A stretch of DNA of 64,000 nucleotides from Poseidonia sp. (GCA_030827475.1 JAUREJ010000003.1:6648-70647); one strand, 5' to 3'; positions 16,231 to 41,024 are shown, counted from the first letter of the stretch. Numbers and translations: made by a program. The notes: a model not told the origin generated them from the letters alone.

Positions 16231-16243
16231 AGTATTATATTCG
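16231..16243 (+). promoter_or_regulatory. TATA-box-like element (AGTATTATATTCG) in an AT-rich island (16120..16260) about 35-45 nt upstream of the giant beta-helix protein start
   Basis: Strong local AT bias in an otherwise 58% GC sequence. Confidence 0.4.
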
Positions 16244-16275
16244 TGGCGTTCATGGAGGGATTAGGTGCATCTGTC

Positions 16276-19200
16276 ATGTCACGCCGAAAGCAAGCAAAAT
16301 CTCTGTCGCTCGTCCTTCTCTACATGGTCTCCATCATGGTGGGGATGGTCAGCCTTCCAACGGTGATGGCCAACAACGAAACAACCCAAGGCACCGTCAC
16401 CGGTGTCGAAACATGGTCTGGAACCATGAACCTTCAAGGAGATGTTGAGGTCGCTGAAGGTGCGAAACTCATCATCAATGCCGGGACCACCGTGAACATT
16501 CCCTTCGGGAAGTTCATTGACGTCAAAGGTGCCATTTGTGTTGGTGATTCCGCCTGCGGCGCCAGTGCAGGTTCAGCATCCTCCAAGGCACGCTTCATGT
16601 GGTCTCTCCCCACCGATTACACCAAGATTGGTCGTTGTTATGTCAACGGATCGAGCACCTTCACCAACGGGGACGCAGCCTGTGGGTCCGGTTTGGTGAT
16701 TCGTGACACGATTGACCAGTCCATCACTTCCATCAACTTCGCTCACTTTGAGAACGCTTACGGCTACCCCATCTACGTGCAAACGCTCCAGGCCGTTCAG
16801 TACGGTGCATTGGTGTTTGATGGCTCAAGCACCACGGCACGTGGACTCTCGTTTACCGACATCAACACCTCAAACGTTATTGCGATTGATTTCGCATCCC
16901 CAACCATCTCCGAGTCCACGTTTGAACTCGGCGTTGACGGTCGAGGGTACGATGCCGCTGCTGTCCGCGCCTACGGCGCAGGTGCCGGTATTCTCGCCAC
17001 GTTTGAAGTCAAGGATTCCAGTTTTACAGGCAACGATGCTGACTGTGGCCAGCAGGGCGGAGGTCGTGCCGTCCTCTTCATCGAAGATTCGTACATTGAC
17101 ATGGACAACCTCGACATCTCACAAAACTCCTATGGCGTTTTGATGAAGTCAAGCTCCGGCTCGCTCACAAATTCTGTGATTGATGTCAAGTGCAACGCAA
17201 TCGACACGAACTCGTTGAAGACAACGGGTACGATCGACCACACCCTCACCATCACCAACAACGTCATCACCACGGCCGAAGGTGCTGGTTTGACGGCCTA
17301 CGACGGTGCCAAAGTGTACGCTGAGCGGAACACCATCTCGGGGGCTTCGGAAGGTTCTGGTGTCGGTATTCGTTCCTCGGTCGTGGAACTCCACAACAAC
17401 ATCATCGGCCCCGTTGGTGGCTGGAACGGCTTGTGGATTTACGGGACCTCTGATGTGGTCGCCGAAAACAACACCATTCAGGACACGGGTAAAGAGCCCG
17501 TCCTCATCGGTGAGTACCACTATCAGGATTCAGGCTGGCAGGTGCCTGCACCAAGTGCTGCCCGTCTCTACCTCGCGAACAACGTGATCTCAAACAACTC
17601 CGGGACGTGCAACTCTCAGATGTACGGCGGTGACTTCCCTTGCCCTGCCGTGCACGTGTTCCGTTCATCAGCCAGCATTCTTGACAACACCATCTCCGGA
17701 AACAACGGTGACATCATCCGTGCCAAGGGTTCGCTTGTGAACGTCCAGCGCAACACCGCTGACAGCCAAGGTGGATTTGCGGGCAACATCAGCCTTCACG
17801 ATGACAATTACGGAAACAAGTACGGTTCTGTTGCTTATTTCTCTGGCAACACCTGGACCGGCGTTTCCCAAGTGTACAACATCACTGAATCCCGCGTGAC
17901 CGTTCAGTCTGAACAAATTCCATCGCCGGGCTTCAACGAATCTTACCCTGTCAACATTCGTTGGCTCGGTGCCGAGTGCCCATATGTTCAGGACGAGTGC
18001 TTGAAACTGCCCGACACCGTTGCTCTCCCCCCCGCACAGATGCCTTTGGCTCTCGAACTCGTAGAAAACGCAACGGTGTTCTCTTTCGCTGACCTGCAAA
18101 ACTTTGATTCATCGATGATCCATGTTCAAAACCAAAACACTGCTTGGGGCTCCCAAGTCCGGGAAGGTGAACTTGTCCAGTACCAGGTTAAAGCCAAGAA
18201 CTCCAACGTTGCAGGTGCAACGGTCGTCATCAAGGACGCAACGGGTCTGCCACTTTACGAATTGACAACCGACGCTCTCGGTTACACACAAGAGGTGTCT
18301 CTCCCCTCCGACTTCCTTCTGGACCGAAACTGGAATCACATCGTGGGTGATAAGAACGCTGCAATCCCCGGAACGAACGACGGAACGGGACAACCCATCG
18401 TCGTTGACGAGGATTCTTGCGCCGACGGCATTGACAACGACGGCGATACTTACGTTGACGATTTTGACGTTTCCTCCGGTGCAGGTGACACCTCAAACTG
18501 CGAGAGCGGCAACCGTGAGATGCCGTTTTACACGGTTGAAGCCTTCAAGTTTGGAAGCGGTACCAAAGAACTCTCCTACGTGTTGAGCGGTCCGGTGAAC
18601 GACGTCATCAACCTTGACAACCTCCGTCCTGGGGTGACGGTGAATCAGCAAGACGGCACGTCGTTTGCGACGACCGTTCGTCTGACAGGCCAAGCCTGGG
18701 ACGGTGCGAAATGGCCATACGCCAACGACAACACCGCCGTTCAATCGCAATTTGGAAAGATTCAGCGCGTTGAGATTCAGCCGCCGGGTTCAACCGACTG
18801 GTACACTGCCTCCGATACTTCCGGCTCGGGCGGCGAAATCACGATGGCAAACCACCCGTTCAAGGACTGGGTTTTCGACTGGGACATGTCTGCTCACCCT
18901 GAGGGCGAGGGCGACGTGACGTTCCGCATCCGGTCCTTCGATGGCTTGGATTATTCACCGGTCGAGGTCCGTCAGTACAAGCTCAACTTGGTCGCTCCCA
19001 CGATTTTGGTGGATGTTCCGACCACGGGAAGCACCTTCAACAACGGCAAAGTGCTTTTCCAAGGTACGGCATCTGACCCTTACCAGGGCACCTACGGCAG
19101 CGACGTGAAACAAATCTGGTTCCATATTTCCGGCGAGGGTGGATTCGAGCAGCAATTCTTCCAGGCTGGGTCGACGAGTTGGTCCTATGAATGGGACGTT

Positions 19201-20697
19201 GGCGACCTCCCAAGCGGCGACTACACCGTTACCATCTGGGCTGCTGACAGCGACTTATGTATTGACAACAACACCGGTTGCCAAGTTGAAGTTCGGACCA
19301 TCACCATCAACAACGAAAACCTCCGGCCGAATCTTCAATTATCTTGGATTGGTGCAGCAGACCAGTCCTCAGGCGGTATTGATGGCGACACCGTTCGTGC
19401 ATCAACTGAAACGAAGATTGTCGGCGTGGCCCGTGACGTTGGTGGCTTTGTGACTCGTGTTGAAATCGAAATCACCGACCTCGCCAACGGACTGGTGCTT
19501 AACGATGGGCCACTTCCGGTCACTTCGTTCAACGCTGACGGTTCATGGGTTGCCAACTGGGACACCTCTGACCTCGTTCACGACCGTGTGTATTCCGTGA
19601 CGGTTCGGGCTTACGACGGCGATGATTACTCGGACGACATCGTTTGGAGAATGACCATCAACAACCCACTTGATGCAGAAAATATTGATCCCGTGTTCAA
19701 CGAAACCGGCTGGGTGGGTACATGGACCATTTTCTGCGATGAAAATTCCAACTCCTTCGACCGCTGCGGTGGCGGTGTGACGTTTGACCTCGGTAATTTC
19801 TTTTCGGACCCCGATGGAACAGGGACCCCAGCCAACGACCTGGAATTCTACATCTACGATGACCCAGCAACCATTGAAGACGACATGTACTTCGATTTCA
19901 TCCGAATTTCCGCTGATGGATTGCTCACTTACGATCCGGTTTCCATGATGAGTGTCACCAGCAACATCCCCGATTGGTCCTTGAACGCCGTGGTGATCTA
20001 TGCTCAAGACGATCAAGAATCAAAGGCATATTCACTCAAAGTGAACTTCCTCGTCCGCGGGGTCTCCTTCAGCGTTGAGCGCGCCGACTCCGGCGCCATC
20101 ACCGTGAACGACCCCGCTACGTTCCGAGGGACAGGACTTCCCGGAAGCACGGTGAACCTTCGCTTCGCAGATGGAAACTCCCTCCTAAACAGCACGAAGG
20201 TTCTCTCCGACGGAACGTGGAGCATGGACCTCTCAGCCAGCCAACTCGGTATTGAAGGTAAGTCGGCGGTTGTCTTTGAAATGGACGATCAATACTTCAG
20301 GTTCTCCGGTCAATCCCAAACCGAAAAAGGCGAATTCAGTATTTCGGTTGCGGGGGCCGATGATGGCGGTTCGGGTGTCCTCGGTATCGTTCTTATCGTT
20401 CTCGCAGTTTTGGTGCTTCTCGGTGCAGCTGCGTTCTTCTTCATCGAATTTGAGGAAGTGGTTGACGAAGCCGAGTTGACCGGCGATGACGCCCAAGAAG
20501 CGGAGGACCCTTATGCTTGGGCCAAAGCCAAGCAAACGCCAAGTCTGCCTGAACAGGCCCATGCGCCTATGGAAACTGCTCAAGCCGTTGCAGAAATCGC
20601 TGCACCCGCCGCTGCCTCCCAACATCCAGGGTGGCTGTGGGACGAAGCCACGAACCAGTGGGTCCCTGACCCGAACTACCAGCAACCGCAACAGTGA
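16276..20697 (+). CDS. giant secreted cell-surface protein with right-handed parallel beta-helix (NosD/pectin-lyase-like) repeats, Asp-rich Ca-binding-like segment (DGIDNDGDTYVDDFD), C-terminal TM helix and short Pro/Trp-containing cytoplasmic tail
   Basis: ORF track 16222..20697; signal peptide MSRRKQAKSLSLVLLYMVSIMVGMVSLPTVMA starts at 16276; repeated motifs NNVITTAEGAGL, RNTISGASEGSGVGI, HNNIIG; C-terminal GIVLIVLAVLVLLGAAAFFFIEF. Confidence 0.8.
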   Translation: MSRRKQAKSLSLVLLYMVSIMVGMVSLPTVMANNETTQGTVTGVETWSGTMNLQGDVEVAEGAKLIINAGTTVNIPFGKFIDVKGAICVGDSACGASAGSASSKARFMWSLPTDYTKIGRCYVNGSSTFTNGDAACGSGLVIRDTIDQSITSINFAHFENAYGYPIYVQTLQAVQYGALVFDGSSTTARGLSFTDINTSNVIAIDFASPTISESTFELGVDGRGYDAAAVRAYGAGAGILATFEVKDSSFTGNDADCGQQGGGRAVLFIEDSYIDMDNLDISQNSYGVLMKSSSGSLTNSVIDVKCNAIDTNSLKTTGTIDHTLTITNNVITTAEGAGLTAYDGAKVYAERNTISGASEGSGVGIRSSVVELHNNIIGPVGGWNGLWIYGTSDVVAENNTIQDTGKEPVLIGEYHYQDSGWQVPAPSAARLYLANNVISNNSGTCNSQMYGGDFPCPAVHVFRSSASILDNTISGNNGDIIRAKGSLVNVQRNTADSQGGFAGNISLHDDNYGNKYGSVAYFSGNTWTGVSQVYNITESRVTVQSEQIPSPGFNESYPVNIRWLGAECPYVQDECLKLPDTVALPPAQMPLALELVENATVFSFADLQNFDSSMIHVQNQNTAWGSQVREGELVQYQVKAKNSNVAGATVVIKDATGLPLYELTTDALGYTQEVSLPSDFLLDRNWNHIVGDKNAAIPGTNDGTGQPIVVDEDSCADGIDNDGDTYVDDFDVSSGAGDTSNCESGNREMPFYTVEAFKFGSGTKELSYVLSGPVNDVINLDNLRPGVTVNQQDGTSFATTVRLTGQAWDGAKWPYANDNTAVQSQFGKIQRVEIQPPGSTDWYTASDTSGSGGEITMANHPFKDWVFDWDMSAHPEGEGDVTFRIRSFDGLDYSPVEVRQYKLNLVAPTILVDVPTTGSTFNNGKVLFQGTASDPYQGTYGSDVKQIWFHISGEGGFEQQFFQAGSTSWSYEWDVGDLPSGDYTVTIWAADSDLCIDNNTGCQVEVRTITINNENLRPNLQLSWIGAADQSSGGIDGDTVRASTETKIVGVARDVGGFVTRVEIEITDLANGLVLNDGPLPVTSFNADGSWVANWDTSDLVHDRVYSVTVRAYDGDDYSDDIVWRMTINNPLDAENIDPVFNETGWVGTWTIFCDENSNSFDRCGGGVTFDLGNFFSDPDGTGTPANDLEFYIYDDPATIEDDMYFDFIRISADGLLTYDPVSMMSVTSNIPDWSLNAVVIYAQDDQESKAYSLKVNFLVRGVSFSVERADSGAITVNDPATFRGTGLPGSTVNLRFADGNSLLNSTKVLSDGTWSMDLSASQLGIEGKSAVVFEMDDQYFRFSGQSQTEKGEFSISVAGADDGGSGVLGIVLIVLAVLVLLGAAAFFFIEFEEVVDEAELTGDDAQEAEDPYAWAKAKQTPSLPEQAHAPMETAQAVAEIAAPAAASQHPGWLWDEATNQWVPDPNYQQPQQ

Positions 20698-20722
20698 CGG
20701 GCTAACGAGCGAGGGAATTTTG

Positions 20723-23248
20723 ATGGCTGTTCTGGGGAAGCCGGGGGTGCAAGAGAGGATCCTTTTGCACTTGTTGGACTACTCTGATTTCAAAGACAGC
20801 ATTGAAGTGCCGTTCGCACTCTCTCAAATGGGTATTGCGAACGCCGTGGCCATCGCTCGTTCAAACGTGCCCCGAGCAATTGCTGGCTTGAAGGACCAGG
20901 GGATATTGGTTGAACGCCAAGCTCATGTCAAAGGCGTTTCTCGAAAACGGAAGGCCTACTTTTTGACCGATAGCGGCGTTTCCCTCGCAGCGGAGACATG
21001 GCAGCGTCTTTCGGACGTTCCCGTACGATGCATCATCGATGCTCAGTCACCCAGAGATACAACGCTCGGTGGCATTAAGTCTGTGCTTCCTTTTCCGATG
21101 CGACCCGTGGATGTCATCCGGTACATGGACGATAACCACACCTTGGACCTACGAAGCTTAAGCGCCGAATTGGTCGAGCGGGATTTGTCAAAACACGTGG
21201 AAAAACAACTGGTCACCTCCCTCGCCGACCTTCCGCGTCTGCGTCATTTCTACGGGAGGGAAACCGAACTTGACAACATGGTGAACCTTCTCGAAGCACG
21301 GGCAACGACATTGCTCGTACCGGGGATCGCTGGAATCGGGAAAACGACGGTGGCCTCCAAGTTGATCGAGCGGTTCCTTCATCGACGAAATTTGCTCTAT
21401 CACCGGTGTCAAGATTGGGAAGGATCCCGGTCTTTTTTCGAATCCGTGGCGGACTGGCTCTCGAGCATGGGAAACTCAGATTTTTCGACATATCTTGCTG
21501 CGACACCTGTTCCTCAGCCCGGTGACGCTGCGCGACTTCTCGTCGAGGCCCTTCAAGGCTCACCCGCCCTCATCGTCATCGATGATTTTCACAAGGTAGC
21601 CGACCTCGTTCTTCACCAAACCTTCCAGGCCATGTCGTTGAATTTGCTCGGAAGTGAGGAAAAGATTGGTTTGGTGATGTTTTCAAGGTCGTTCAAACCC
21701 GTTGTTCCGACAAAGGACGCTGAAGGGCGGATTGCAAGCTTGGTGTTGCCGCTTGACGGTCTTGATTCCGCTTCGGGTCGTAAACTTCTCAGCAGTTTTA
21801 AGCAACTCGAAGAAGAACAATGGCTTCACATTCACGGCTTGTCCCGAGGGCACCCACTGGTCTTGGAACTCATCAACCGTGGAGCTTCGGCCGGAGCGTT
21901 CCACGAGACGTTGGAAAATTATGTCACGGTCGAGATTTTCTCAAAATTGAGTGCCGAACAGAAGCGTGTCCTCTCCGCCCTGGCCATTTTCCGAGAGCCG
22001 GTGTTTCTTGATGCCCTGGCTCAACAACAGTTGGATACCGATGTTCTCGACAGTCTTGTCGAGTCGGGTTTGGCTCGCCAAGCCGACGCGGATACATACG
22101 ACGTTCACGATTTGATTCGTGAATTCCTGCTACGAAGCATGACGCCCGCCCTCAAATCGGAATTTCACAGTAAATGTGCTGATTGGTACGGTAAGCAGCC
22201 CGAGAGTCACGAAATTCTCGTGGAGTTGATCTATCATCTCATTCAATCCGGGCAACACGACGAAGCTTCAAAATCCATCGTCACCGAAGGTCGTCATCTC
22301 GTCACGCAAGGCCACATGGAATTGCTTGGCCTGATTGAACAAGTCGATACGGCTGACATCGACTCCACAACGCAACTCTCTCTGGCTCAACTGCAGGGTG
22401 AAATTTTAGCCTTGTTGGGACGTCACGATGAAGCAGAAGTGTTGCTCCAAACCGCTTTGGAGCGAGCAGAGAAGAACGCCGATGTTCTCGTTCAAGCCGA
22501 GTTGCTCTCATCTCTGGCGGATGTGAGCCGGAAACAAGGGAACAGCGACCTCTCACTCCAGCGCCACAAAAAAGCGCTCAAGCACTACATCGCTCTCGGG
22601 GATGCTCGTTGGGCTGCTCGAACCTACAACAACATCGGCTACCTCCTGCGCCGGAAAAACGAACAAGCAAAGGCGCTTGAAGCCTATGGTGAGGTGGAAT
22701 CCATTCTTTCATCCTCCAACGATGACGGTTTGATCAGCAGCCAGATCACGCTGGCCAGAGCCCTCATCGACCTGGGTGAAGTCGACCGTGCCCGTCACCA
22801 CGCCATGGCGTCTCACGAACGCACCTCTGAACTCGAAGACACGTCGTTGCACGCACGGGCTCAAGCTGTTCTTGGGAGGTACTATTCGCGGGTGGAGCAA
22901 TCTGAACTTGCCCTGTTCCACTACAACGAGGCACTTGTTGCAATGAACGAAGCAGGTGATGTCCAATCGCTGGTTGAGATCACGATGTTGCTGGGCGAGG
23001 TGCTCCACGATGCTGGGCGAGGCGATGAAGCCATTGAGCATTATCGGGAGGCCCTCGTGTTGGCCGAAGCTAACGACCTACGCATGCAAATAGGGGAATT
23101 GTTGACCCGTCTCGGTGGACTTTCTCCCGAACGTCACGAACGAATGGAATATTTGCAACGTGCCCTCAAAGTGTTCCGTGAATTGGGCGCTCAATCCCGC
23201 ATGCGTGAAGTCCAATCGCTGGTCCACCGAGCCGTAATGGGACGCTAA
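20723..23248 (+). CDS. STAND-type signal-transduction NTPase: N-terminal winged HTH, P-loop NB-ARC/AAA-like domain (Walker A GIAGIGKTT, Walker B LIVIDDFH), C-terminal TPR array
   Basis: Motifs read directly in the translation. The ORF track start at 20486 would overlap the upstream giant gene by 212 nt, so the Met at 20723 preceding the wHTH was chosen. Confidence 0.75.
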   Translation: MAVLGKPGVQERILLHLLDYSDFKDSIEVPFALSQMGIANAVAIARSNVPRAIAGLKDQGILVERQAHVKGVSRKRKAYFLTDSGVSLAAETWQRLSDVPVRCIIDAQSPRDTTLGGIKSVLPFPMRPVDVIRYMDDNHTLDLRSLSAELVERDLSKHVEKQLVTSLADLPRLRHFYGRETELDNMVNLLEARATTLLVPGIAGIGKTTVASKLIERFLHRRNLLYHRCQDWEGSRSFFESVADWLSSMGNSDFSTYLAATPVPQPGDAARLLVEALQGSPALIVIDDFHKVADLVLHQTFQAMSLNLLGSEEKIGLVMFSRSFKPVVPTKDAEGRIASLVLPLDGLDSASGRKLLSSFKQLEEEQWLHIHGLSRGHPLVLELINRGASAGAFHETLENYVTVEIFSKLSAEQKRVLSALAIFREPVFLDALAQQQLDTDVLDSLVESGLARQADADTYDVHDLIREFLLRSMTPALKSEFHSKCADWYGKQPESHEILVELIYHLIQSGQHDEASKSIVTEGRHLVTQGHMELLGLIEQVDTADIDSTTQLSLAQLQGEILALLGRHDEAEVLLQTALERAEKNADVLVQAELLSSLADVSRKQGNSDLSLQRHKKALKHYIALGDARWAARTYNNIGYLLRRKNEQAKALEAYGEVESILSSSNDDGLISSQITLARALIDLGEVDRARHHAMASHERTSELEDTSLHARAQAVLGRYYSRVEQSELALFHYNEALVAMNEAGDVQSLVEITMLLGEVLHDAGRGDEAIEHYREALVLAEANDLRMQIGELLTRLGGLSPERHERMEYLQRALKVFRELGAQSRMREVQSLVHRAVMGR

Positions 23249-23255: not shown

Positions 23256-23735
23256 TCATTGAACCGCTGCAGGCCGGTCGAGCGAGAGGAACGTGACGCC
23301 GTCTTCGTGAACCACCCAAAGCCGTTCCACGCCAGAGAGAGGAATGCGCCCCTCATGGACACCAGCGCCTGTTCCTGACAACGCTGTCGAGGTGTCAAGC
23401 GGTCCACCTTCATCGATGAGCAGAAGAGAAGTGTTCGTGAGTTCAAGCCAAAACAAGGATTCGTCCGCTTCCGTTGGCCGCCAACTGACCGCCTCGGCGT
23501 AGGATATGTTCCCGCCAAGCCGGCTTGACTCATCTGCGCGCTCAACAGCGGCGGCGATGTCTTCCATGTTGGCTTGGATTGCCTCTTCGTTCCATCGCAA
23601 TCGGGTGTTGGTTTCAATGTCCCACGCCCAAACGCTGAACATGGACATCAAAAGGACCCCAAGAAGGAAGGTGAAAATGTAGCCCAACTCCGTGGCCGCA
23701 GCCCGGGTGTCGGCTCGAATGCTCGTGGACCTCAT
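23256..23735 (-). CDS. small archaeal type IV pilin-like protein (class III signal peptide-like N-terminus TRAAATELGYIFTFLLGVLLMSMF)
   Basis: N-terminal basic residue, small residue, then a 20+ aa hydrophobic stretch; start overlaps the stop of the upstream gene (23732..23735). Confidence 0.6.
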   Translation of the reverse strand: MRSTSIRADTRAAATELGYIFTFLLGVLLMSMFSVWAWDIETNTRLRWNEEAIQANMEDIAAAVERADESSRLGGNISYAEAVSWRPTEADESLFWLELTNTSLLLIDEGGPLDTSTALSGTGAGVHEGRIPLSGVERLWVVHEDGVTFLSLDRPAAVQ

Positions 23736-25966
23736 GCCATCACCTCTCGGGTGGTGACATCGAGCGAGGCCAGTTGGAGGGTGAATTCGATGACCTCACC
23801 GTTGGTGTGCCAGACCGCTTCTGCGGTTCCGTAACTCGGGTCCGGGACCCAACCCACATAATCCGTCAGAAGGTCCAACCGGCCGGGGTACACCGTCCAA
23901 TCCTCGCTTGCTTCGAGCCCGATGCCCGCACTGTCAGCGATGGCCGTTCCGTAGGGTTCCGACCAACCCCGCCTGACTTCGTAAGCGGGCGTTGAGGCCA
24001 GTGACATTCGGTGGACGAGTTCAATGTCAAGTTCCAGTTTTCCCCCTCCACTCTCGCTGTTGGCGGTTGGATGAAGCGAGGGAACCGTTGCGGCGAAGCG
24101 AGGTCCCGGTCCACCTCGGTCTGAGGGCGGCACGATGACGTAAGGGTTGAATTCCGGGTGATTGGTCACGACGGCTCCTCCGCTGAACGCCACTTCCATG
24201 CCGGCGATCGAGGATTGGAACTGGTATGCGAGTCGGGAGAGGTGGAACGACCAAACCGTTCCGATGGAGGCGTGCGTTGAGATGCCGTCGTTTCCAATCA
24301 CATCAATGGCGACGCTTGCGGGGTGACGTCCATCAATCCATGCGCGATGGAGGTCAACTTGGCTTCTTCCACCCATGCGTTCCCAAGGGAGGTCGGTGGT
24401 GATCCAACCGCTGGCTTGAGTGGAAACCGCCGTGCATCGATCTGCGCCGTCATGCGGGAGGTGATGCAACCCGTGAGCGCCTGCTGTGCGAAGGAGGCGA
24501 ACTGGATGGCCGTCAGTCACGGACAGAGCGGTTGTTCCGAGGGGAGCGGTGATGCTTTGCCGATTGTTTGCATCAAGGAACACGCCCGAATCGTTTGCAG
24601 CTCCCGTCAGGTTCCATGTTGAGGTGTAGCCTGCGAGTCGGTAGTGAAGGGTCTCAGCCGTGGTGTTGTCTTCGTTGGTGTACCTGAACACGCCTCCAGA
24701 ACGACCACCCGTGTCGTCGGCAGGAATCATTGCTGTGCCGACAGCATCGTTTGAACTGTTCAATGTGTTTGAAGCGGCCCATGCGAGGAAGACATCCCCG
24801 TCGGCGTCGAGCACAAGCGCACCTTCGTCGAGGGCCGGGGGCCACGCTACGTCTTCAACACCGCCGGCTGCGACAGAAATGCCGCCACCTCGCCACGTTA
24901 CGGTCACCACAGCATCGCCCGGATTGGTTAGGCGTAGTGTCCCGTTCATGAGAGGTGGGAGGAATTCATGGCCGAGGTACATGCCGGTCGTTGAAGGCCA
25001 AGCCGTCAGACCGAGGTCGTTTCCAGTGTTGGATTTCAGCAGGAGGCGTGAAGGCGAACTCGTCGTGATGTGAGCGACGGTGTCGGCCTCAACGGTGAGT
25101 TGGTGGGTGAACGCAACTGCGGTTCGTGCCAAGCCGCTGGGCAGGGCGTAGTGGATGCTGGTTTCCTCGCCGACCGTAATGTGAATTTGGTTGGCCTTTT
25201 GGCTGAGGAGGTGGATGGCGGTGGTGCCTTCCTTCAGCGGGATGGACCAAGCGTGACCTTTCTTGTCGGATGGTTCAGGAGCGTTTGGCAGGACGTAGGT
25301 CGCCCCGCTGCCCCCTGTTTCACCAAACACCGTAAGAGCATGACTCGATGTTAACACGGCTTCGCCGATGCTGGAAAGGTCAAACGATGCAGCATCATCG
25401 ACCCGCAGAGCGACGTTTTCCGCTTCTTCGCCGTCAACGTTCAACGTGACATCAATCGGGCCGAGCGGCATGGCGAGACCCGGTGTGACGGTGAAGAAGA
25501 CCCTGTCGAGGAAATCCTCGAGCGTGTAATAGTACGGTCGGTCCGGTCCAAGACGCAAATCGGTAACACAAACCGCCTCAACAAAACTCTCCGGGTGGCG
25601 AATCTCCAGTTCATCGTCAAAATCCAGTGCACCTCGTGCCCGCAGGGTCATGTCTTCCTGCCATGTTGCTGAATACCACATTCCGCCCCGCATGCTGTCC
25701 CAAACAAGATTTCCATCAACAGGAATCAAGGTCGCATGGGTGGAATCTCCGGGCATCCCTCGTTCGCTGAGGCTTGAGGTTTGGTGAGCGAGGAGCGTCA
25801 TCTGAGAGGACATGTCGTGGCGTTCAACCGAACCCTCCATCTCCTCGATGACGGGCATCATTGAGACCATCATGAGGCCGATGATGGAGAGGACACCGCC
25901 GAAGAGGAGCACCGTTGCAACGGCGGCAGAGACCGCTTCGTCTTCCCGGCGAAGTTGCCCCCTCAA
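23732..25966 (-). CDS. large (744 aa) archaeal pilin_N-domain protein (N-terminus EAVSAAVATVLLFGGVLSIIGLMMV resembles the conserved pilin_N/DUF1628 segment AVSPVIGVILMVAITV)
   Basis: N-terminal motif; translationally coupled on both sides (4-nt overlaps). Confidence 0.65.
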   Translation of the reverse strand: MRGQLRREDEAVSAAVATVLLFGGVLSIIGLMMVSMMPVIEEMEGSVERHDMSSQMTLLAHQTSSLSERGMPGDSTHATLIPVDGNLVWDSMRGGMWYSATWQEDMTLRARGALDFDDELEIRHPESFVEAVCVTDLRLGPDRPYYYTLEDFLDRVFFTVTPGLAMPLGPIDVTLNVDGEEAENVALRVDDAASFDLSSIGEAVLTSSHALTVFGETGGSGATYVLPNAPEPSDKKGHAWSIPLKEGTTAIHLLSQKANQIHITVGEETSIHYALPSGLARTAVAFTHQLTVEADTVAHITTSSPSRLLLKSNTGNDLGLTAWPSTTGMYLGHEFLPPLMNGTLRLTNPGDAVVTVTWRGGGISVAAGGVEDVAWPPALDEGALVLDADGDVFLAWAASNTLNSSNDAVGTAMIPADDTGGRSGGVFRYTNEDNTTAETLHYRLAGYTSTWNLTGAANDSGVFLDANNRQSITAPLGTTALSVTDGHPVRLLRTAGAHGLHHLPHDGADRCTAVSTQASGWITTDLPWERMGGRSQVDLHRAWIDGRHPASVAIDVIGNDGISTHASIGTVWSFHLSRLAYQFQSSIAGMEVAFSGGAVVTNHPEFNPYVIVPPSDRGGPGPRFAATVPSLHPTANSESGGGKLELDIELVHRMSLASTPAYEVRRGWSEPYGTAIADSAGIGLEASEDWTVYPGRLDLLTDYVGWVPDPSYGTAEAVWHTNGEVIEFTLQLASLDVTTREVMA

Positions 25967-27048
25967 CGACTCACCTCGATGCGTTGAAGATCGACTTCAA
26001 AATACAGCGGCAAGTTTTGAGCTGAGACGCTGAAGCCATCAGCGCCGCTTGCTCTTCCGTACGGGGAGAATCCAATGTAGGTGTCGAGCGTTCCAGCAGC
26101 GCGTTGCACGTTGTACTCGGAGAGCCAGTTGTCATGGTACTGGGGTGTGACCACATCGTGAAGGGCGTTTGTCACCGTGAATTGAACGTTGTAGGCGCGG
26201 CCGCTGAACAATGTTATGGGGCCTTGAGAGACGAATTCCAAGCCGATGTTGGAACCTGTTCCGATGCTTCCGTTGGTGATCACATCGGTCAGCAGCATGG
26301 ACAATCGCAACTCATCGTTGGCCATGCGATCAAACTCCACCAGGGGCATGGCGCTGACATCCCATGGTCCGTTTGGAAAACGCTCTGCTCGGGCGTTGTT
26401 CATCAGGACGATCTGATGTTCACCCTGCCCGAGCGAGGTGTGAATCTCCAATCCAGAAAGCGTCCACGAGACTTGTCGGTAGAGGGGTTCGTCATCCGCT
26501 CCAAAGACGGTGATGATCATCCAGTGGTTGGCGCTGGCGTTGTGCGAGACCATCACTTCCCGGTGGCTGGCCTCCACTTCGCTCGTGAGCGAAACGCCGG
26601 GCGATTGAACGGTGATGCTTCGAGCGGTTTCATTGGCGGCGAGGACACCAATCGTGGTGTCGTTCACATGACGCAACGAGATTCTTTCCGACGAAGTGAG
26701 GTCGGCCCCAATGGTCCAATGTTCGACGTTCTGCACCGGTCGGATCGAAGTGGATTGGATGGCCAGCGTGTTTCGGAAGCCCGTGCCTTCCGGTGCGTTC
26801 CCGGCCACCTCAATGCGGTCCTCAATTCGGTCAGCGAGCCCGGTGGCCGAATTCCAATTCGTGTTATCCTCAAAATCGGACAGGTACGGATTCAGGAAAA
26901 TCCAGACCCCGCCCATGATGGTGATGACCATGGCCAGCAACATCACGACACCCAGAACTTCGCTCACCGCCCGTTCTTCACCCCACAGGTGGCGGGAAGC
27001 GGACTGCGTCGATGGCCGGTTCACGCTTTGGACACGATGAGGTATCAT
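25963..27048 (-). CDS. archaeal type IV pilin-like protein (361 aa) with canonical class III signal (ER-A|VSEVLGVVMLLAMVITIMGGVWIF)
   Basis: [KR][GA] followed by VS-x-V-h-G-V-h-h-L, matching the pilin_N consensus (RGVSPVIGVILLVAITV). Confidence 0.75.
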   Translation of the reverse strand: MIPHRVQSVNRPSTQSASRHLWGEERAVSEVLGVVMLLAMVITIMGGVWIFLNPYLSDFEDNTNWNSATGLADRIEDRIEVAGNAPEGTGFRNTLAIQSTSIRPVQNVEHWTIGADLTSSERISLRHVNDTTIGVLAANETARSITVQSPGVSLTSEVEASHREVMVSHNASANHWMIITVFGADDEPLYRQVSWTLSGLEIHTSLGQGEHQIVLMNNARAERFPNGPWDVSAMPLVEFDRMANDELRLSMLLTDVITNGSIGTGSNIGLEFVSQGPITLFSGRAYNVQFTVTNALHDVVTPQYHDNWLSEYNVQRAAGTLDTYIGFSPYGRASGADGFSVSAQNLPLYFEVDLQRIEVSR

Positions 27049-27056
27049 TTAGCCAT

Positions 27057-27890
27057 TCACCCCAAATCCTGCGATGCGACTTCGTTGTGCAGGGGTGATT
27101 TGGTTTCGGTTTCGGATGGCTGCCCGATGTAATGGGAAAAATCAGGGCCGTCCTGTTCGGAGATTTTCAGGTCGCCCGTGAAGACTTCTGCGATGTGATA
27201 GAGCACGGTCGATTCGGCGATGTGAGGCCGATTGTTTTTCTGGCTTAGGTGCGTCAGGACAATGGTTCGTGTGGCTTCCGTACAAACCTCGGCCAGGAAC
27301 TGGCCGGTTTGGTCGTTTGACAAGTGGCCTCCGCGTCCGGAGATGCGATCCTTCAAGCTGTACGGGTACGGGCCTCCAAGCAATTTCTTCTCGTCGTAGT
27401 TGGCCTCAATGGAAATGTGTTCGCAACCCCGCACGTGCGTGACCAGTTCGTCGGTCCACGAGCCGAGGTCGGTGATGATGGCGGCTCGTTCTCCGTTGTG
27501 GCTTGCGACAAAGGCCACATTGTCCGAACCGGCGTGGGGGACGGGAACGGGCAGCACGGAGAGGTCGTCACCGACACGTATCAAATCAAGCGCAGCGAAG
27601 TGGGTGGTCAACGAGGGGAGCAGGTCGAGTTCAAGCGCCGTACGCTCGTTGGCCAGGATCTGGGTGTTCCATCGCGTTTGCATGATGCGAGCACCACCTC
27701 CGTGGTCGCCGTGATGATGGGAGATGAAGACGCAATCGATGTCCTCCGGGCTGAGGTCAAGGCGGGCGAGCCGCTTCTCCAGTTGTGCGCCGCTGAAACC
27801 CTGATCGATCAGCACCCGAACCTTTGGCGTCTCCAGCAGCGTCGAGTTGCCCCGGCTTCCGGTTCCAAGGTGGGTGATGGTCATCGTCAT
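27057..27890 (-). CDS. MBL-fold metallo-hydrolase (YycJ-like: HLGTGSRGNS, HHHGDHGG, GHLSN motifs)
   Basis: HxHxDH zinc-binding motif and GHLSN. Start at MTMTITHLG (27890) rather than the track's 28079; this leaves an 8-nt gap before the pilin operon. Confidence 0.8.
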   Translation of the reverse strand: MTMTITHLGTGSRGNSTLLETPKVRVLIDQGFSGAQLEKRLARLDLSPEDIDCVFISHHHGDHGGGARIMQTRWNTQILANERTALELDLLPSLTTHFAALDLIRVGDDLSVLPVPVPHAGSDNVAFVASHNGERAAIITDLGSWTDELVTHVRGCEHISIEANYDEKKLLGGPYPYSLKDRISGRGGHLSNDQTGQFLAEVCTEATRTIVLTHLSQKNNRPHIAESTVLYHIAEVFTGDLKISEQDGPDFSHYIGQPSETETKSPLHNEVASQDLG

Positions 27891-28077
27891 GCGAACAACT
27901 CGGAGCGGTCGCGGAGGATTCTTGAACACACCGACAGAACCTGACGGTATCGGATGTTTTGGCGGACTTTCGCACGACGTCAAGGTGTGCGTGTATGAAC
28001 AATGTTCCATCACCCTCATAAGCAATCTGAGCAAGGTATTCTTTGAGCGAAGCGTATGCTTTGCAGCAGGCGAGAAC

Positions 28078-31000
28078 ATGAGGCGCAGTCAAACCACGCT
28101 CCTAACCACCCTCGCAGTCGTTGCGAGTTTACTCTTCATGTCGCAATTTCCTTCAATTTCGAACGTTGCCAACGTTCACCCCGATGACACGACGCAAACG
28201 CCACCTCCCAACACGGATTCGGATGGTGATTTGATTCCTGATGTTCACGAAACGCTCTTTGAAGGTTGGATGAATTGGACTGCACCTGATGGTCGTCCAG
28301 TTGCGATGAAAGGCTTGGACAAGGACGATGCTGTTGATGCTGACACCGACCGGGACCTTGACGGTCTCAACGCCACCGAGGAATTCTGTTGGCCCTATCC
28401 CGCCAACTGCACCGCTCCTGGCTTCCCTCGTGGACTCACCGGCGAACTTGATGAAAACAACGACCGAGTCTACCTTGACCCTCGCATGGCTGACACGGAC
28501 GGCGACGGGATGCCCGATGGGTTTGAGGCGTACATGTGTCAGCGAATGGGCGGATTTGACATCGTGAATTTGAGGTTCATCTGCCCTTCATTCGACCCGT
28601 TGAACGGTAGTGATGTGACCCTGGATTCGGACAACGACGGCTTTGATGTGAACAGGGACGGTGTCATGAGCGAAGCCGAACGTTACACTGCACCCGAAGA
28701 GTATGCACACGGCATGCCGTCAAACTACACCACTGAGCTCGACGGCTTGTGGTGCTTTGCAACCCTTCCCAACGGGGCCCTTCTGAAAAATTGGCCTTAC
28801 ATTTCCTCGGGGGCGAACGCCACGTTCCACAACCTCTTGCCCGCCTGCACCAATCGCGATGTTCCGCATGTTGGTGAAGATTTGTGGCTCGGAACCGACC
28901 CGCTGCTCGATGACTCCGACCGCTACCTCTGGGACGGATTTTCAATCCGGTCGCTTTACCCTTCGTTCGGTGACGGCATTCCCGACGGTTGGGAAGTTCA
29001 CTTCGGCCTCGACCCGCTGAACCGTTCCAACGCCCTTTCAGACCCCGATCGAGACGGCTGGGACGCCAATCGAGACGGTGGTGTTTCCGAGGACCTTTCC
29101 CGCACCTTCACGGCGCTCAAACTCGGTGAAGCCCTCTCGACGCTTGAAGAATACACGGTGCACTACGACAACGGAAACACGGTCTATCCGGGATTGAAAA
29201 CGACTTACGTTGGCGATGAAGAGCCGTTTTCCACCTTCCCGCTGATCTACGATGCAGAAGCCGATGCGCTCTCCGTCTTGCACCATGATGTCCGAGCCCT
29301 CGACGAGCACGATGATACGGTTTATGTCATGACGCGATACGGTATCAGCACGGTCAACGAAGTCGACTCCACCCAATCCCATCAATGGCTGCCGCAGGGC
29401 GTTGAGTTGACCGACGGTTTCCTCGCCCGCTCGAACAACCTGCCCTTCGCTTTGGTGATGGGCACCACCGCCGGTTTTGCCGTCGCCCCTTTGCTGGCAG
29501 ATGGAAGCCTCGGTGCCTTAGCGTCGTGGGATTGGTCACTGACGGGGCATCTGAACGCCATCGCCCCGCTTTCAGGGGATGGCGCCTCGTTGTTCGTCCT
29601 CGGTTTGGCCGATGGTGGTGAGGGCGCGTTGATTGAACTTGGCAACGCTGCCGTGATTTCTGAGACCCATGAACTCGGCATTGGCTTGGTATCAACACTT
29701 GCCGAAGCAAACGCTTCCGTCACCGATATTGAACACGGTTTAGCAGGAGGTGCAACCCTTTCGCTCTTCGTCGGAACGGACCGCGGTCTCCTGGTTGTTG
29801 AAACCGCCTCTGCTCGTGACGAGGCGGTCGGCGAGTGGCGCTTCTTCTACACGCAAGACGATGTGGATCTTCCCCCGAACGTTGACGAAGTTCGAAACCT
29901 CCCTCCCGGTTCGACCGGCAATCCTGCCGAAGTCCGGACCATGATTCTCGACGGCCCAACGTCAAGCAATGCGCAAGTGTTGTGGTTTGGCACCCCTGCC
30001 GGATTGCACAAACTCAACCTCAATGACGATTCCATCGACCACAGCGGCTTGCTCCTCCACCCCGGTGTGGACGGAGCGATGGCGCGGGAAACCAACAGCA
30101 TCCGAAGCATCCATCCTACGGGTGATGAAATCTTGGTGGGTTCGGATTGGGGGCTTTGGGCAGTGGCCGGCGATTACGCCTCGGTCTACGGCCTCCAAGA
30201 CCAAACCCGACTTCCGGGTGAAATCGTCGCCATCACGACATCCGTTGGGGAAGGGAACGTGACCGTCTACGGTGCGGCCTCACCCGGCCAATACGCCAAC
30301 CTCCTTCTCATGGATCCTGGAGCCAACGATTCGGATGCCGACGGCATGCCCGATGGTTGGGAGGTCGTCCACGGATTGGACCCCACCGACCCTTGGGATG
30401 CACTCTACGACAACGACGGAGACGGTCTTGATCTTGACCAATCCGGAGATATGAACCTCGAGCGACTTTGGACGAATCTCGACGAATTCCGATACACGAA
30501 ACTGACTCCCGAAGGCTACAATTCAACCGACCCTCGTGTTGGTGATACCGACGGGGATGGTTTGGGGGACGGAGCCGAATATTTCGGTTTCTTCTTTGAA
30601 CAATCCACCCTCTGGTGCCACTACACCGTTCAGTTGGTCCATGTCTGCGATGATGCGGCAGGTCAAGCCGCCAACGCAACTTACCTCGCTGTAGCGAACG
30701 TCGACAGCCCCACCGACCCTACCAGCGAAGATTCCGACGGTGACGGCATGCCCGACGGCTGGGAAATCCAACACCGACGCTGGGTTGGGACCACCTTCTC
30801 GGGCGGAAACAACTGGAGCCTTGATCCCCTACGAGCCGAAGATGCAAACTGGGATGCTGATGGTGACGGTCTGCCGAACCTCTGCGAATACCAGTGGTCT
30901 GTCGTGCGTCTTATGGGCCTTAACGGCGACCTTTTGGCGGATTACGGTGAATCACCCGAAGCCGTTGCCTCGTGGGCGGTGGCCGACCCGAACCTTATCG

Positions 31001-33828
31001 ATTCAGACGGAGATACCCTTCCCGACGGTTGGGAATCCAAAGGCCTCTGTTCGTGGGACCCTTCTCGTGTAGGCGTGAATCCCCTCAACGGCTCGGATGC
31101 CTTTGAAAATCCTGATGGGGACGGTTACGACATCAATCACGACGGCGTCTTGAGTCAGGATGAAGCCTTTGTGAACTATCTTGAATATCACGTTCGAACC
31201 GACCTTTTCAGTGGCAACATGACGCTCTCCGGGGAGCCTCTGCCCGCAGGCTTTAGCACTCAACTCTTCGACCGCATCGGAGAACTGGGTCAACCCGACG
31301 CCACCTTTGCAGAACGGGCATCGGGTGCCGTGACGTCCGGTCAATCCACCTTCAGCGTCGGAGCAGCCGACCCGTTGAGCTCGGACACCGACCGGGACGG
31401 CATGCCCGACGGCTGGGAAATATGGCACGCACGATGGAACCTGCTCGACGATGCATGGACGCTGAACCCCTTGGACTCCACGGACCGTTGGGACGACGCT
31501 GATAGCGACGGCATGACGAACTGGGAGGAGTACAACGCCATCTCGCCTCTCCTGAGTCAGACGGATGCAAACCGCTCATCCCCGCAATGGTTTGTGACCA
31601 CAATCGGTACAGCCTTTGCGCTTCAACAATGGCCCGGTATTCCAACGGAGGCCTCGTTCGGAGATTTCCTCACGCAAGACCAGATCAACCTCACAGGTTG
31701 GACATCCGACCCCAACAATGTTGACACCGACGGCGATGGTATGCTCGATGGCGTGGAATTGCTCTTCACCTCGTGGAACGTCTCAGCTGCGACATGGACG
31801 CTCAATCCGCTCGTTGCAGGAGACGGTAATTTTGACGGCGACGAAGACGGTCTTATCGACCGGCAAGAATTTGCCCTTGCCACCGAACAACCCGACAACG
31901 GTGTTGAACATCCAAGCGATGCGCCGTTGATGCATGTGGACGGGGATTTCCAACAACCCACGGAAAAAGCCCAGCGCGTGTTCAACATCCTCATCTCAAA
32001 GGAGACGAGAGGCAAGCGTTTGCTGAACGACTTCAACGCCTGGCAGCAGGGTGAACCCCCCAACGCCTTCATTGAGGTTGTTTTGGGAATGACCGACCCC
32101 ACCATCCCCGACACCGACGGTGACGGGATGTACGATGGATTTGAGTATTGGTTCACGTCGTGGGATTTGGACCAAAACCGTTGGTCCATCAACCCGCTCA
32201 TCGACGGTGACGTGAACTTGGATTCGGATCAAGACAGTTTTGATTGCAACGGGGACGGTGAAATCGATGGCAACGAATCCTTCTCGAATCTCAGGGAATG
32301 GGAATCCCGAACATGGGGGAAATTCCTCAACCGGAACACGGTTCCCGTTTCCATGGGCATCATCGATTTCGGCGAAGATGCGATGCTCGCCTATCAGGAA
32401 GAAATGGGATACTCTCTGATTCAAGCCCAATCAGCGCTTTACCAAGACTTTGTTGAGAAAGGTCAAGACTCCGCCGACAGAATGGCGAAGATCAACTCAT
32501 TGGAGAGCGAGAATTTCAACCGAAGTCTTCGGGGCGTTGCTGACCCAACACATCCTGATTCAGACAGTGACGGCATCCCGGATGGTTGGGAATACTGCTA
32601 CGCTATTTTCGGGATGGATGATGCCACAACTCAAAATCACTGGGCAGCCAATCCTCTCAACCCGTGGGACGTGAATTACGACGGTGACCATGACGGATGG
32701 TACGACCGAACCGCGTTTGACATTCCTGCTGTCCAAGGCACGTGGGACGAACGAACCTTTACGCCCTCCGGTGTCATGATTCAAAACGGAATTGGCGACT
32801 TGCCGTTCACGAACGCCATGGAATACGACAACCAAACACGCCCAGATCTCAACGACAGCGACGAGGACAGCCGGACCTTCATCACGGTTGTCGAGAACGG
32901 GGCGGTCGTCTCTCATGAACGGGACTACAATTACTCCGATGGTCGTGAGGTGTTCAAGTACGGCTCAAATCCAAGCGACAACGATACCGACGGTGATATG
33001 CTTCCCGATTGGTACGAATACAAGCTCGGATGGAACGAAAGCAACGACAATTTCAGTTCTTACCTCCAAATTCAGGTCGTTTGGATCGATGTCGCAACCG
33101 GTGGGCCTTGTAGCACATCGACCACATCGTGTTTGCCCCTCTCGCAAGACGGTTCAGGCGGTACCCTGAGTCGCCCTGAGATCGAGATGGCTTGGTTCAC
33201 ATTGAACCCTGCGGATCCAAACGATGCCAACGCCGACCCCGACCAAGATGGAAATTGGGATTGCTCAGGTGCTGGTTGTACGTACGAACCTTACACCAAT
33301 TTCCAGGAGTTCTACGCCATAACGCTCAATGTCTACGCTTCACCGAATGCTGTGAGGTTGAGCGGGTTGACCTACGATGGGTCACCGGTCACCGAAGGCT
33401 GGCAGTTCCGTGCTGCACTCCTCGGCCTCGGCCAGTCGAACGAGTTGGTATTGAACTACTTGAAACTGGACAAATACGCCGGTCCAGACCGTCAATACGG
33501 CTACATTGTGGACGACAAAGATACTGATTTCTTATCGGTTGATCCGAGCGACGACGTGGTGATGATGGCCGGAAACCGGACCGACCAGTGGGAGATTTAC
33601 TACGCAGGATCGCCCAACACTGCTCCTGTACGGAGCGTGGGGGAGCACGAATTCGGTTGGTATTTGCTCGATTTCGACGACGACCATTTGGCCGAAGGTT
33701 CAAACCCGATGAATTGGGATACGGACGGAGATTGGATGAACGATTGGTTCGAGGTTCGGGACGATGAAGAGGACGGTGTCCGAGGAGATTCCTCTCCCAT
33801 CCGATACGACTCCAGACAAACCAGTTAA
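28078..33828 (+). CDS. giant (1917 aa) secreted acidic protein built from many thrombospondin type-3-like Ca-binding repeats (D-x-D-x-DG-x-x-D-G-W-E) plus beta-propeller-like middle region; no C-terminal TM anchor
   Basis: Signal peptide MRRSQTTLLTTLAVVASLLFMSQF; at least 10 copies of DTDGDGMPDGWE-like motifs (e.g. nt 28495, 30336, 30733, 31387, 31726, 32110, 32563, 32986). Confidence 0.85.
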   Translation: MRRSQTTLLTTLAVVASLLFMSQFPSISNVANVHPDDTTQTPPPNTDSDGDLIPDVHETLFEGWMNWTAPDGRPVAMKGLDKDDAVDADTDRDLDGLNATEEFCWPYPANCTAPGFPRGLTGELDENNDRVYLDPRMADTDGDGMPDGFEAYMCQRMGGFDIVNLRFICPSFDPLNGSDVTLDSDNDGFDVNRDGVMSEAERYTAPEEYAHGMPSNYTTELDGLWCFATLPNGALLKNWPYISSGANATFHNLLPACTNRDVPHVGEDLWLGTDPLLDDSDRYLWDGFSIRSLYPSFGDGIPDGWEVHFGLDPLNRSNALSDPDRDGWDANRDGGVSEDLSRTFTALKLGEALSTLEEYTVHYDNGNTVYPGLKTTYVGDEEPFSTFPLIYDAEADALSVLHHDVRALDEHDDTVYVMTRYGISTVNEVDSTQSHQWLPQGVELTDGFLARSNNLPFALVMGTTAGFAVAPLLADGSLGALASWDWSLTGHLNAIAPLSGDGASLFVLGLADGGEGALIELGNAAVISETHELGIGLVSTLAEANASVTDIEHGLAGGATLSLFVGTDRGLLVVETASARDEAVGEWRFFYTQDDVDLPPNVDEVRNLPPGSTGNPAEVRTMILDGPTSSNAQVLWFGTPAGLHKLNLNDDSIDHSGLLLHPGVDGAMARETNSIRSIHPTGDEILVGSDWGLWAVAGDYASVYGLQDQTRLPGEIVAITTSVGEGNVTVYGAASPGQYANLLLMDPGANDSDADGMPDGWEVVHGLDPTDPWDALYDNDGDGLDLDQSGDMNLERLWTNLDEFRYTKLTPEGYNSTDPRVGDTDGDGLGDGAEYFGFFFEQSTLWCHYTVQLVHVCDDAAGQAANATYLAVANVDSPTDPTSEDSDGDGMPDGWEIQHRRWVGTTFSGGNNWSLDPLRAEDANWDADGDGLPNLCEYQWSVVRLMGLNGDLLADYGESPEAVASWAVADPNLIDSDGDTLPDGWESKGLCSWDPSRVGVNPLNGSDAFENPDGDGYDINHDGVLSQDEAFVNYLEYHVRTDLFSGNMTLSGEPLPAGFSTQLFDRIGELGQPDATFAERASGAVTSGQSTFSVGAADPLSSDTDRDGMPDGWEIWHARWNLLDDAWTLNPLDSTDRWDDADSDGMTNWEEYNAISPLLSQTDANRSSPQWFVTTIGTAFALQQWPGIPTEASFGDFLTQDQINLTGWTSDPNNVDTDGDGMLDGVELLFTSWNVSAATWTLNPLVAGDGNFDGDEDGLIDRQEFALATEQPDNGVEHPSDAPLMHVDGDFQQPTEKAQRVFNILISKETRGKRLLNDFNAWQQGEPPNAFIEVVLGMTDPTIPDTDGDGMYDGFEYWFTSWDLDQNRWSINPLIDGDVNLDSDQDSFDCNGDGEIDGNESFSNLREWESRTWGKFLNRNTVPVSMGIIDFGEDAMLAYQEEMGYSLIQAQSALYQDFVEKGQDSADRMAKINSLESENFNRSLRGVADPTHPDSDSDGIPDGWEYCYAIFGMDDATTQNHWAANPLNPWDVNYDGDHDGWYDRTAFDIPAVQGTWDERTFTPSGVMIQNGIGDLPFTNAMEYDNQTRPDLNDSDEDSRTFITVVENGAVVSHERDYNYSDGREVFKYGSNPSDNDTDGDMLPDWYEYKLGWNESNDNFSSYLQIQVVWIDVATGGPCSTSTTSCLPLSQDGSGGTLSRPEIEMAWFTLNPADPNDANADPDQDGNWDCSGAGCTYEPYTNFQEFYAITLNVYASPNAVRLSGLTYDGSPVTEGWQFRAALLGLGQSNELVLNYLKLDKYAGPDRQYGYIVDDKDTDFLSVDPSDDVVMMAGNRTDQWEIYYAGSPNTAPVRSVGEHEFGWYLLDFDDDHLAEGSNPMNWDTDGDWMNDWFEVRDDEEDGVRGDSSPIRYDSRQTS
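30742..30767 (+). repeat. 26-nt exact intragenic DNA repeat gacggcatgcccgacggctgggaaat encoding the DGMPDGWE Ca-binding motif (second copy at 31396..31421); part of a family of degenerate TSP3-repeat coding units
   Basis: Identical strings read at both positions. Confidence 0.8.
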
Positions 33829-40938: not shown

Positions 40939-41024
40939 GGCCCGTGGTCGTCGTGCTCATTTGTGAACTTGGCGCAAGGAAGCGGGGGGATTGGATGAAA
41001 AACCCCTGCCTTGATGGCCTTTCA

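Follow-up and report, generated by a model that had tools for sequence, protein, structure and literature searches.

An operon of an MBL-fold hydrolase and three pilin-like genes in Poseidoniales, a candidate minor-pilin or tip-adhesin set

A stretch of 64,000 nucleotides (nt) of DNA from Poseidonia sp. (GCA_030827475.1 JAUREJ010000003.1:6648-70647; hereafter the window) carries on its minus strand, at 23256..27890, four closely packed genes for a metallo-beta-lactamase (MBL)-fold metallo-hydrolase and three pilin-like proteins of 361, 744 and 159 residues (here p361, p744 and p159, together the trio). The question raised by this locus is what such a gene set is for. In a first-pass annotation of the window the two larger proteins had been suggested to be tip adhesins or the subunits of a novel filament. 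The presence, order and sizes of the four genes were confirmed by a scan for open reading frames (ORFs) and by their recurrence in about 110 loci, and no description of this operon or its genes was found in the literature. The explanation put forward here, at about even confidence, is that the trio is a set of minor pilins or tip adhesins particular to this lineage, which machinery encoded in trans would process and assemble.

N-termini, folds and junctions of the three pilin-like genes

The first gene of the operon encodes the MBL-fold protein (27057..27890, minus strand, 277 residues). Its ORF spans 27057..28079, and the shorter span was adopted because all homolog matches begin at MTMTITH. 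It is followed on the same strand by p361 (25963..27048), p744 (23732..25966) and p159 (23256..23735). A six-frame screen of the 64 kb with a crude class III-like pattern, namely a charged residue, then G or A, then an uncharged hydrophobic stretch of 24 residues, gave N-terminal hits in the trio only, and each of the three proteins has a single hydrophobic segment (Kyte-Doolittle (KD) value >1.6), which is N-terminal. Cleavage is predicted (slash) at RA/VSEVLG in p361, at EA/VSAAVA in p744 and at RA/AATELG in p159, so that the mature proteins would begin VSEVLGVVMLLAMVITIMGGVWIF, VSAAVATVLLFGGVLSIIGLMM and AATELGYIFTFLLGVLLMSMFSVW, respectively. The leader of p744, which has a TTG start, is 11 residues long and that of p159 12 residues, with that of p361 being either 27 residues (ATG at 27048) or 19 residues (GTG at 27024).

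To examine these N-termini across the families, 36 (p361), 67 (p744) and 54 (p159) distinct sequences were aligned. Residue −1 is A or G in all 36 sequences of p361, in 65 of the 67 of p744 (Ser in the other 2) and in 54/54 of p159, residue −4 is D, E or N, and the leader is basic in all three families. Positions +1 to +24 are nearly invariant from Marine Group II a (MGIIa) to Marine Group II b (MGIIb) in each family, with the rest of the proteins only 30–43% identical; in p159 positions +1 to +14 are nearly invariant over its 54 sequences. The alpha1 helix of type IV pilins serves as the substrate of the peptidase and as the interface in assembly. The pattern of a nearly invariant +1 to +24 segment joined to a diverged body would, as far as sequence can tell, be that of such a helix and unlike that of an ordinary signal anchor.

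Matches to known families are confined to the same part of the proteins. The p361 of the window scores 24.8 bits against DUF7289 (positions 1–54; cutoff 27), 19.3 bits against Pilin_N (cutoff 25.2) and 14.2 bits against TIGR02537 (cutoff 20), while p744 scores 21.6 bits against DUF7289 over model positions 2–71 of 238, under the 27-bit gathering threshold. Among the homologs at E≤0.01, 31 of 33 p361 sequences match DUF7289 and 30 of 33 match Pilin_N (best 1e-4); 26/28 p744 homologs match DUF7289, and 3/14 p159 homologs match DUF7266, weakly. Some homologs carry a precomputed PF23960 (DUF7289) assignment, and the matches inspected, those of two window proteins, are confined to the N-terminal part of the model. 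When the p361 profile was searched against the PDB, the best matches were the N-termini of the haloarchaeal pilins 8gi2, 8fj5 and 9myg, which are weak (E 0.1–0.6), and nothing past weak pilin N-terminal matches was found there with either the p744 or the p361 profile. Profile-profile alignment of p361, p744 and p159 with each other covers the first 45 residues or so only, in register. The archaeal pilin-type N-terminus claimed for p361 is thus borne out family-wide. The description of the 744-residue protein as having a pilin_N domain was not upheld, as neither p744 nor p159 matches Pilin_N (PF07790) and p744 aligns to about the first 70 positions of DUF7289 only. No match of the trio to Arch_flagellin (PF01917) was found at E≤0.1, nor to a FlaF/FlaG model. 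No enrichment of N-glycosylation sequons was seen in the trio.

AlphaFold2 models of the two larger proteins were built on shallow multiple sequence alignments, one of 28 and one of 33 sequences. In that of p361 (predicted local distance difference test score, pLDDT, 71.9) a helix at residues 22–83 is followed by two Ig-like beta-sandwich domains, with residues 298–340 unmodelled. In that of p744 (pLDDT 65.5) N-terminal helices at residues 9–68, of low confidence, precede a confident all-beta region at about 100–575 with several sandwich or jelly-roll domains, and the C-terminal region of about 170 residues (577–744; 23732..24236) is unmodelled though it has the highest sequence conservation in the protein. 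A helix followed by beta-sandwiches (at 85–583 in p744 when the whole beta region is counted) is therefore present in both models, the helices being of low to moderate confidence, and neither model has a specific PDB match. As modelled, the fold class fits pilin-like surface proteins, with the globular parts as new families. Both cysteines of p744 are invariant, which is compatible with an extracellular disulfide and with an extracytoplasmic location. It should also be noted that residues 577–744 of p744 and 298–340 of p361 are the best-conserved segments and yet have a pLDDT of 23–39; they may be interfaces that depend on a partner, or novel folds.

Within the trio, p361 and p744 overlap by the 4 nt TTGA (25963–25966) and p744 and p159 by the 4 nt ATGA (23732–23735). 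A Shine-Dalgarno-like GAGGTGA can be read on the minus strand 4 nt before each downstream start, at 25971..25977 before the TTG of p744, within the end of p361 (the conserved ..EVSR codons), and at 23740..23746 before the ATG of p159, within the end of p744. The p361–p744 junction is −4 nt in 78/88 loci and −1 in 10/88, and that of p744–p159 is −4 in 66/83, −1 in 11/83 and a few nt in the others. Overlapping start and stop codons, with GAGGTGA 4 nt upstream, are kept in 88/88 and 77/83 loci, respectively, which argues for obligate co-expression of the three pilin-like genes in a fixed ratio.

The junction between the MBL gene and p361 is of another kind. Its stop codon lies 8 nt from the p361 ATG at 27048, and a Shine-Dalgarno-like GGGGTGA (27057..27063, minus strand, a sequence reading) lies 8 nt before that ATG and overlaps the MBL stop codon. 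However, the start of p361 is ambiguous: loci L001–L069 share only codon 9 as a start codon (GTG at 27024 in the window, giving the 19-residue leader), the upstream start region has a stop at codon 7 in two loci and lacks the first ATG in several, and loci L070–L080 retain instead a start that yields a 12-residue leader. For this reason the gap is given here as 8 or 32 nt. Elsewhere it ranges from −4 to 66 nt, with 344 nt in one locus. Gaps of −4, −4 and 8 nt had been described between the four genes. The overlaps of the trio stand, while from the sequences strict translational coupling would apply to the three pilin-like genes and not clearly to MBL and p361. A candidate promoter for the operon is the motif CGGTGTGTTCAAGAATCCTCCGCGA (27909..27933, minus strand), 20–45 nt upstream of the MBL ATG, its columns being at least 90% conserved in an alignment of 15 Poseidoniaceae loci. 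At its other end the operon stops, with p159, 7 nt short of the stop codon of a gene that converges on it and encodes a 920-residue wHTH-STAND-TPR protein.

The related loci that were compared comprise 80 genome loci, from Poseidonia sp. and Candidatus Poseidoniaceae (MGIIa), 26 metagenome loci and three further contigs. The order MBL-p361-p744-p159 recurs in these loci in both MGIIa and MGIIb. In 80/80 genome loci the wider order is the gene for an 1815-residue protein, a TSP-repeat giant, the four operon genes, STAND (convergent), a beta-helix giant and a subtilase. In the metagenome loci seeded with an MGIIb member the order is identical, with identities to the window proteins of 30–34% for p361, 31–39% for p744, 37–43% for p159, 49–57% for MBL and 45–58% (mostly 51–57%) for the STAND protein. 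A low-GC Poseidoniaceae contig keeps the core of the operon with one giant gene upstream, compared with two in the window. Among 1.84 billion representative proteins, a profile search for the p744 family gave 133 hits, about 13 of them full-length clusters at 50% identity, and all clusters with a taxon label are Poseidoniales or unclassified Euryarchaeota, including Candidatus Thalassarchaeaceae (MGIIb). A tblastn search of p361 against the PLSDB plasmids, aimed at annotated relatives in haloarchaea, gave no relevant match. On the sequences searched, the operon occurs only in Poseidoniales. Three contigs that carry this archaeal locus (L015, L070 and L080) have GenBank names of bacterial metagenome-assembled genomes, namely Verrucomicrobiales, Salipiger bermudensis and Rhodobiaceae, and these are probably binning errors.

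Assembly in trans and the competing readings

Cleavage, complex formation, filament association and adhesion are what we infer for the trio. Each of p361, p744 and p159 would insert in the membrane via its N-terminal helix and be trimmed by a prepilin-type peptidase after the conserved Ala/Gly at −1. Made in a fixed ratio, the three would form a heteromeric minor-pilin set through their conserved, mutually distinct N-terminal helices, with p159 and p361 as proximal subunits and mature p744 (733 residues, a string of beta-sandwich domains) as the distal, exposed, adhesin-like subunit. The complex would then prime, cap or decorate a filament. The major subunit of that filament and its ATPase/platform, from a PilA-type system or the FlaI/FlaJ of the archaellum, would be encoded elsewhere.

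There is precedent for such an arrangement. Archaeal pilin sets are often encoded apart from the ATPase/TadC modules and may be shared between modules, and Methanococcus maripaludis requires three minor pilins (PMC4858521). The archaellum genes FlaAGHIJ are found in all MGIIa (PMC6336850), and a type IV pilus (T4P)-type ATPase and platform (FlaI/FlaJ) is therefore available at least in MGIIa; a prepilin peptidase is expected alongside these archaellum genes. As a DUF1628/Pilin_N gene is among the strongest transcription start sites of MG-II euryarchaea in situ (Hou 2016, PMC5069720), a candidate major pilin also exists in MG-II. The size of the subunits is less unusual than had been supposed from a range of 120–200 residues for archaeal pilins. 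That range is too narrow, since arCOG02911, the euryarchaeal signature minor pilin with an Ig-like fold, already has 250–550 residues (Makarova, Koonin & Albers 2016, PMC4858521). Accordingly, 361 residues is ordinary and only 744 residues is past the described range. Large archaeal minor pilins and pilin sets without adjacent ATPases are thus already known; what is new here are three unannotated families found only in Poseidoniales, a pilin-like subunit of 744 residues, strictly conserved overlaps and MBL as the constant first gene.

The likeness to the arCOG02911 minor pilins extends to the class III-like N-terminus, the all-beta Ig-like body, the variable and large size, the frequent location apart from ATPase/TadC and, as a further likeness, the proneness of arCOG02911 to duplication. 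The trio differs in having no detectable sequence similarity to them past the N-terminal helix, in the 744-residue subunit above their described range, and in being a fixed set of overlapping genes with MBL first, in Poseidoniales only. The EpdA/EpdB/EpdC proteins of M. maripaludis are likewise three distinct minor pilin-like proteins beside a separately encoded major pilin (PMC4858521). Unlike the trio, they are encoded in a T4P locus that has its own peptidase, EppA, and they differ from it in size. In bacteria, GspI-GspJ-GspK and PilV/W/X-PilY1 are sets of small, medium and large pilin-like subunits from compact operons that form a heteromeric cap, which primes assembly and bears an adhesive or large domain. 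With these tip complexes of the type II secretion system and T4P the comparison is an analogy only: the trio comes from another domain of life, its leader and helix are of archaeal type and lack the G/F..E5 signature of bacteria, and its complex is a proposed one. The families DUF7289 (PF23960), DUF7266 (PF23928) and Pilin_N (PF07790, formerly DUF1628) resemble the trio in the N-terminal 27–71 residues; for DUF7289 this is the first quarter of its 238-position model only, and the globular parts of the trio are unrelated.

Several results weigh against a minor-pilin or tip-adhesin set. All Pfam scores of the window trio are under the gathering thresholds. The 159-residue protein remains pilin-like, as it had been called, by its N-terminal pattern, with A or G at −1 throughout, but not by family, as it has no significant family match in Pfam. 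The three helices also differ mutually (hhalign E 3e-4 to 0.02), while a common helix is frequent among the pilins of a single filament. As had been stated for PilB/PilC and prepilin peptidase, no machinery was found nearby: Pfam gave no T2SE, T2SF or Peptidase_A24 among the real-looking window ORFs of at least 150 residues, and no ATPase, TadC/FlaJ, peptidase or small PilA-like gene was found in the window or within 10 kb on either side of the roughly 110 loci, where tblastn with the window proteins accounts for nearly all of the flanks and the precomputed Pfam annotation of three loci lists no assembly domain. No fla genes were found in the window or in the related loci. The archaellum operon is present in all MGIIa and in only some MGIIb (Rinke 2018; Tully 2019), and the operon described here occurs in several MGIIb lineages, most MGIIb subclades being reported without FlaHIJ (PMC6336850). 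Should the operon occur in the absence of any T4P machinery, the filament reading fails. Lastly, the 35-kb neighbourhood is syntenic order-wide, so that the adjacency of MBL alone is weak evidence of a shared function.

This last point bears on the MBL protein itself. Its fold was confirmed, with 59.6 bits to Lactamase_B_2 (PF12706; cutoff 27) and 49.6 bits to Lactamase_B. The metal ligands H58/H60/D62/H63 (HHHGDH), H119, D141, H189 and H214 do not vary among 12 MGIIa/MGIIb sequences, and it is for this reason that the protein is probably active, as a phosphodiesterase- or nuclease-like enzyme with an intact catalytic site. No hydrophobic segment is present in it (no KD window >1.6), and the protein is therefore predicted to be cytoplasmic. 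The label 'YycJ-type' given to it in the first-pass annotation could not be confirmed. The best NCBIfam and PDB matches are generic and cover the N-terminal half only (B3 lactamases, RNase Z/TTHA0252 and Apyc1; E 1e-5 to 6e-8), with no YycJ-specific model or structure among them. Neither the census of archaeal T4P by Makarova 2016 (PMC4858521) nor text searches gave any mention of an MBL/lactamase-fold partner, in agreement with the statement that co-transcription with an MBL hydrolase is undescribed for pilin operons.

The possibility that this enzyme is functionally unrelated to the trio, being a housekeeping RNA/DNA or small-molecule phosphodiesterase that shares its promoter or merely its neighbourhood, is a strong one, rated only a little short of even. 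It agrees with the predicted cytoplasmic location, the generic matches, the variable spacing to p361 and the much slower evolution of MBL (50–57% identity compared with 30–43% in the trio). In addition, the entire region is syntenic anyway, and adjacency alone is no proof of a functional link. Set against this, MBL is on the same strand as p361 and directly adjacent to it in every locus examined, MGIIa and MGIIb, the Shine-Dalgarno-like site of p361 overlaps the MBL stop codon, and at gaps of 8 nt or less there is no obvious space for a separate promoter.

For the trio, the main alternative, considered less likely, is a membrane-anchored envelope complex with no pilus, in which the pilin-like helices would be possibly uncleaved anchors, as in FlaF/FlaG. 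The trio would then arrange or hold in place the giant surface glycoproteins of the conserved island to which it belongs: the 3191-residue protein with STT3/AglB, the subtilase, the 1491-residue beta-helix protein, and the TSP3-repeat and 1815-residue proteins. FlaF/FlaG do have a pilin/archaellin-like N-terminal hydrophobic segment followed by a beta-sandwich, and one p361 homolog is labelled 'FlaG/FlaF family flagellin' by JGI, but the trio proteins are much larger, do not match PF01917 or a FlaF/FlaG model, and are encoded outside the archaellum operon. The absence of assembly machinery near the operon and the mutually distinct helices would both suit such a complex, and so would the occurrence of the operon in lineages of MGIIb, which for the most part reportedly have no archaellum operon. 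The conserved unmodelled segments of p744 (577–744) and p361 (298–340) could be partner-binding surfaces. The location within a surface-protein island, in an order kept from MGIIa to MGIIb, also points this way, although Poseidoniales genomes seem broadly syntenic and membership of the island may be incidental. What speaks against it is the A/G at −1, acidic −4 and basic leader, which resemble a prepilin peptidase site and would be needless in a plain anchor, together with the Pilin_N matches across the p361 family.

A bolder proposal, regarded as improbable, is that of a new surface organelle in what are the most abundant archaea of the plankton, a short heterotrimeric pilin-like stalk that bears a multi-beta-sandwich adhesin of 733 residues and is coupled to MBL as a dedicated cytoplasmic phosphodiesterase/nuclease. 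Assembly independent of the archaellum would fit the presence of the operon in MGIIb lineages reportedly without Fla genes, and MBL could, for example, act in taking up or processing nucleic acid that has been captured, or control attachment to particles and phytoplankton through cyclic nucleotides. Least probable of all, and very improbable, is a self-contained novel filament with p361 and/or p744 as major structural subunits: the extremely conserved alpha1-like helices, the unusual subunit sizes and the absence of a small pilin at the locus would suit it, but three equimolar, translationally coupled subunits that differ so much in size are more in keeping with a capped complex than with a homopolymer, the proteins evolve fast outside the helix, precedent gives large Ig-like pilins minor roles, and MG-II euryarchaea have a separate, highly expressed DUF1628 pilin gene.

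The surface-protein island around the operon

The operon lies within a block at about 5.2–39.3 kb of the window, the order of which is kept across Poseidoniales at 30–57% protein identity and which has the appearance of a cell-surface island. The block begins with a gene for a giant protein of 3191 residues (5233..14808, plus strand) with an STT3/AglB N-terminal domain (46 bits; cutoff 24.5) and CarboxypepD_reg. This is an unusually large AglB-like protein, the ortholog of which at locus L109 has 3247 residues and matching precomputed domains. It is followed by a subtilase (14862..16073), which is part of the conserved surface island, and by a beta-helix/Big protein of 1491 residues with a C-terminal membrane anchor (16222..20697). 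The convergent neighbour of p159 (20486..23248, plus strand, probable start near 20720) encodes the 920-residue protein noted above, with winged helix-turn-helix (wHTH), STAND/AAA_16 NTPase and TPR parts (MalT/AfsR-like). It is found at the same position from MGIIa to MGIIb and is a candidate for regulating the surface genes around it. Beyond the operon lie genes for a TSP3-repeat protein of 1993 residues (27847..33828, plus strand) and for the 1815-residue protein (33891..39338), the latter also within the conserved island. A defence system made up of the STAND NTPase and MBL was considered and dropped, as both genes are core, syntenic and 50–57% conserved order-wide, unlike variable defence islands.

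A conserved motif, GTTCCATnAnCnTCAnAAG (plus-strand reading), was detected at 5155..5173 and 28004..28022, 58–78 nt upstream of the STT3 giant and TSP3-repeat genes. These are the two matches in the window, compared with 0.05 expected by chance, and they are at the same distance and in the same orientation. At 27992..28022 the copy includes an inverted repeat, GAAC-N3-GTTC, and hardly varies among 15 Poseidoniaceae loci. This motif could serve a regulon of surface proteins as promoter or operator. The strongly conserved motif CTTATGAGGnTGATGGAAC in the divergent intergenic region was considered as an operator of the MBL operon; as it is found at the same distance and in the same orientation before another plus-strand giant gene, it was assigned to the giants. 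Outside the block, one ORF at 40944..42101 (plus strand) fuses pyroglutamyl peptidase (Peptidase_C15) and NUDIX hydrolase domains, and this fusion is also present at L109.

Meaning for Marine Group II archaea

Marine Group II archaea dominate the archaeal communities of the surface ocean, have not been cultured, and are believed to live in part attached to particles and algae. The attachment factors proposed for them so far are the archaellum, thrombospondin-like proteins and flotillin (PMC6461757, PMC6336850). An order-wide, coupled pilin-like trio with a very large multi-domain subunit is a concrete new candidate for attachment, and it offers a testable role for three unannotated protein families. 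If the trio is also present in lineages without type IV machinery, it would show the reuse of pilin-like helices for a purpose other than a filament. A conserved MBL partner would add a new accessory to the pilin operons of archaea.

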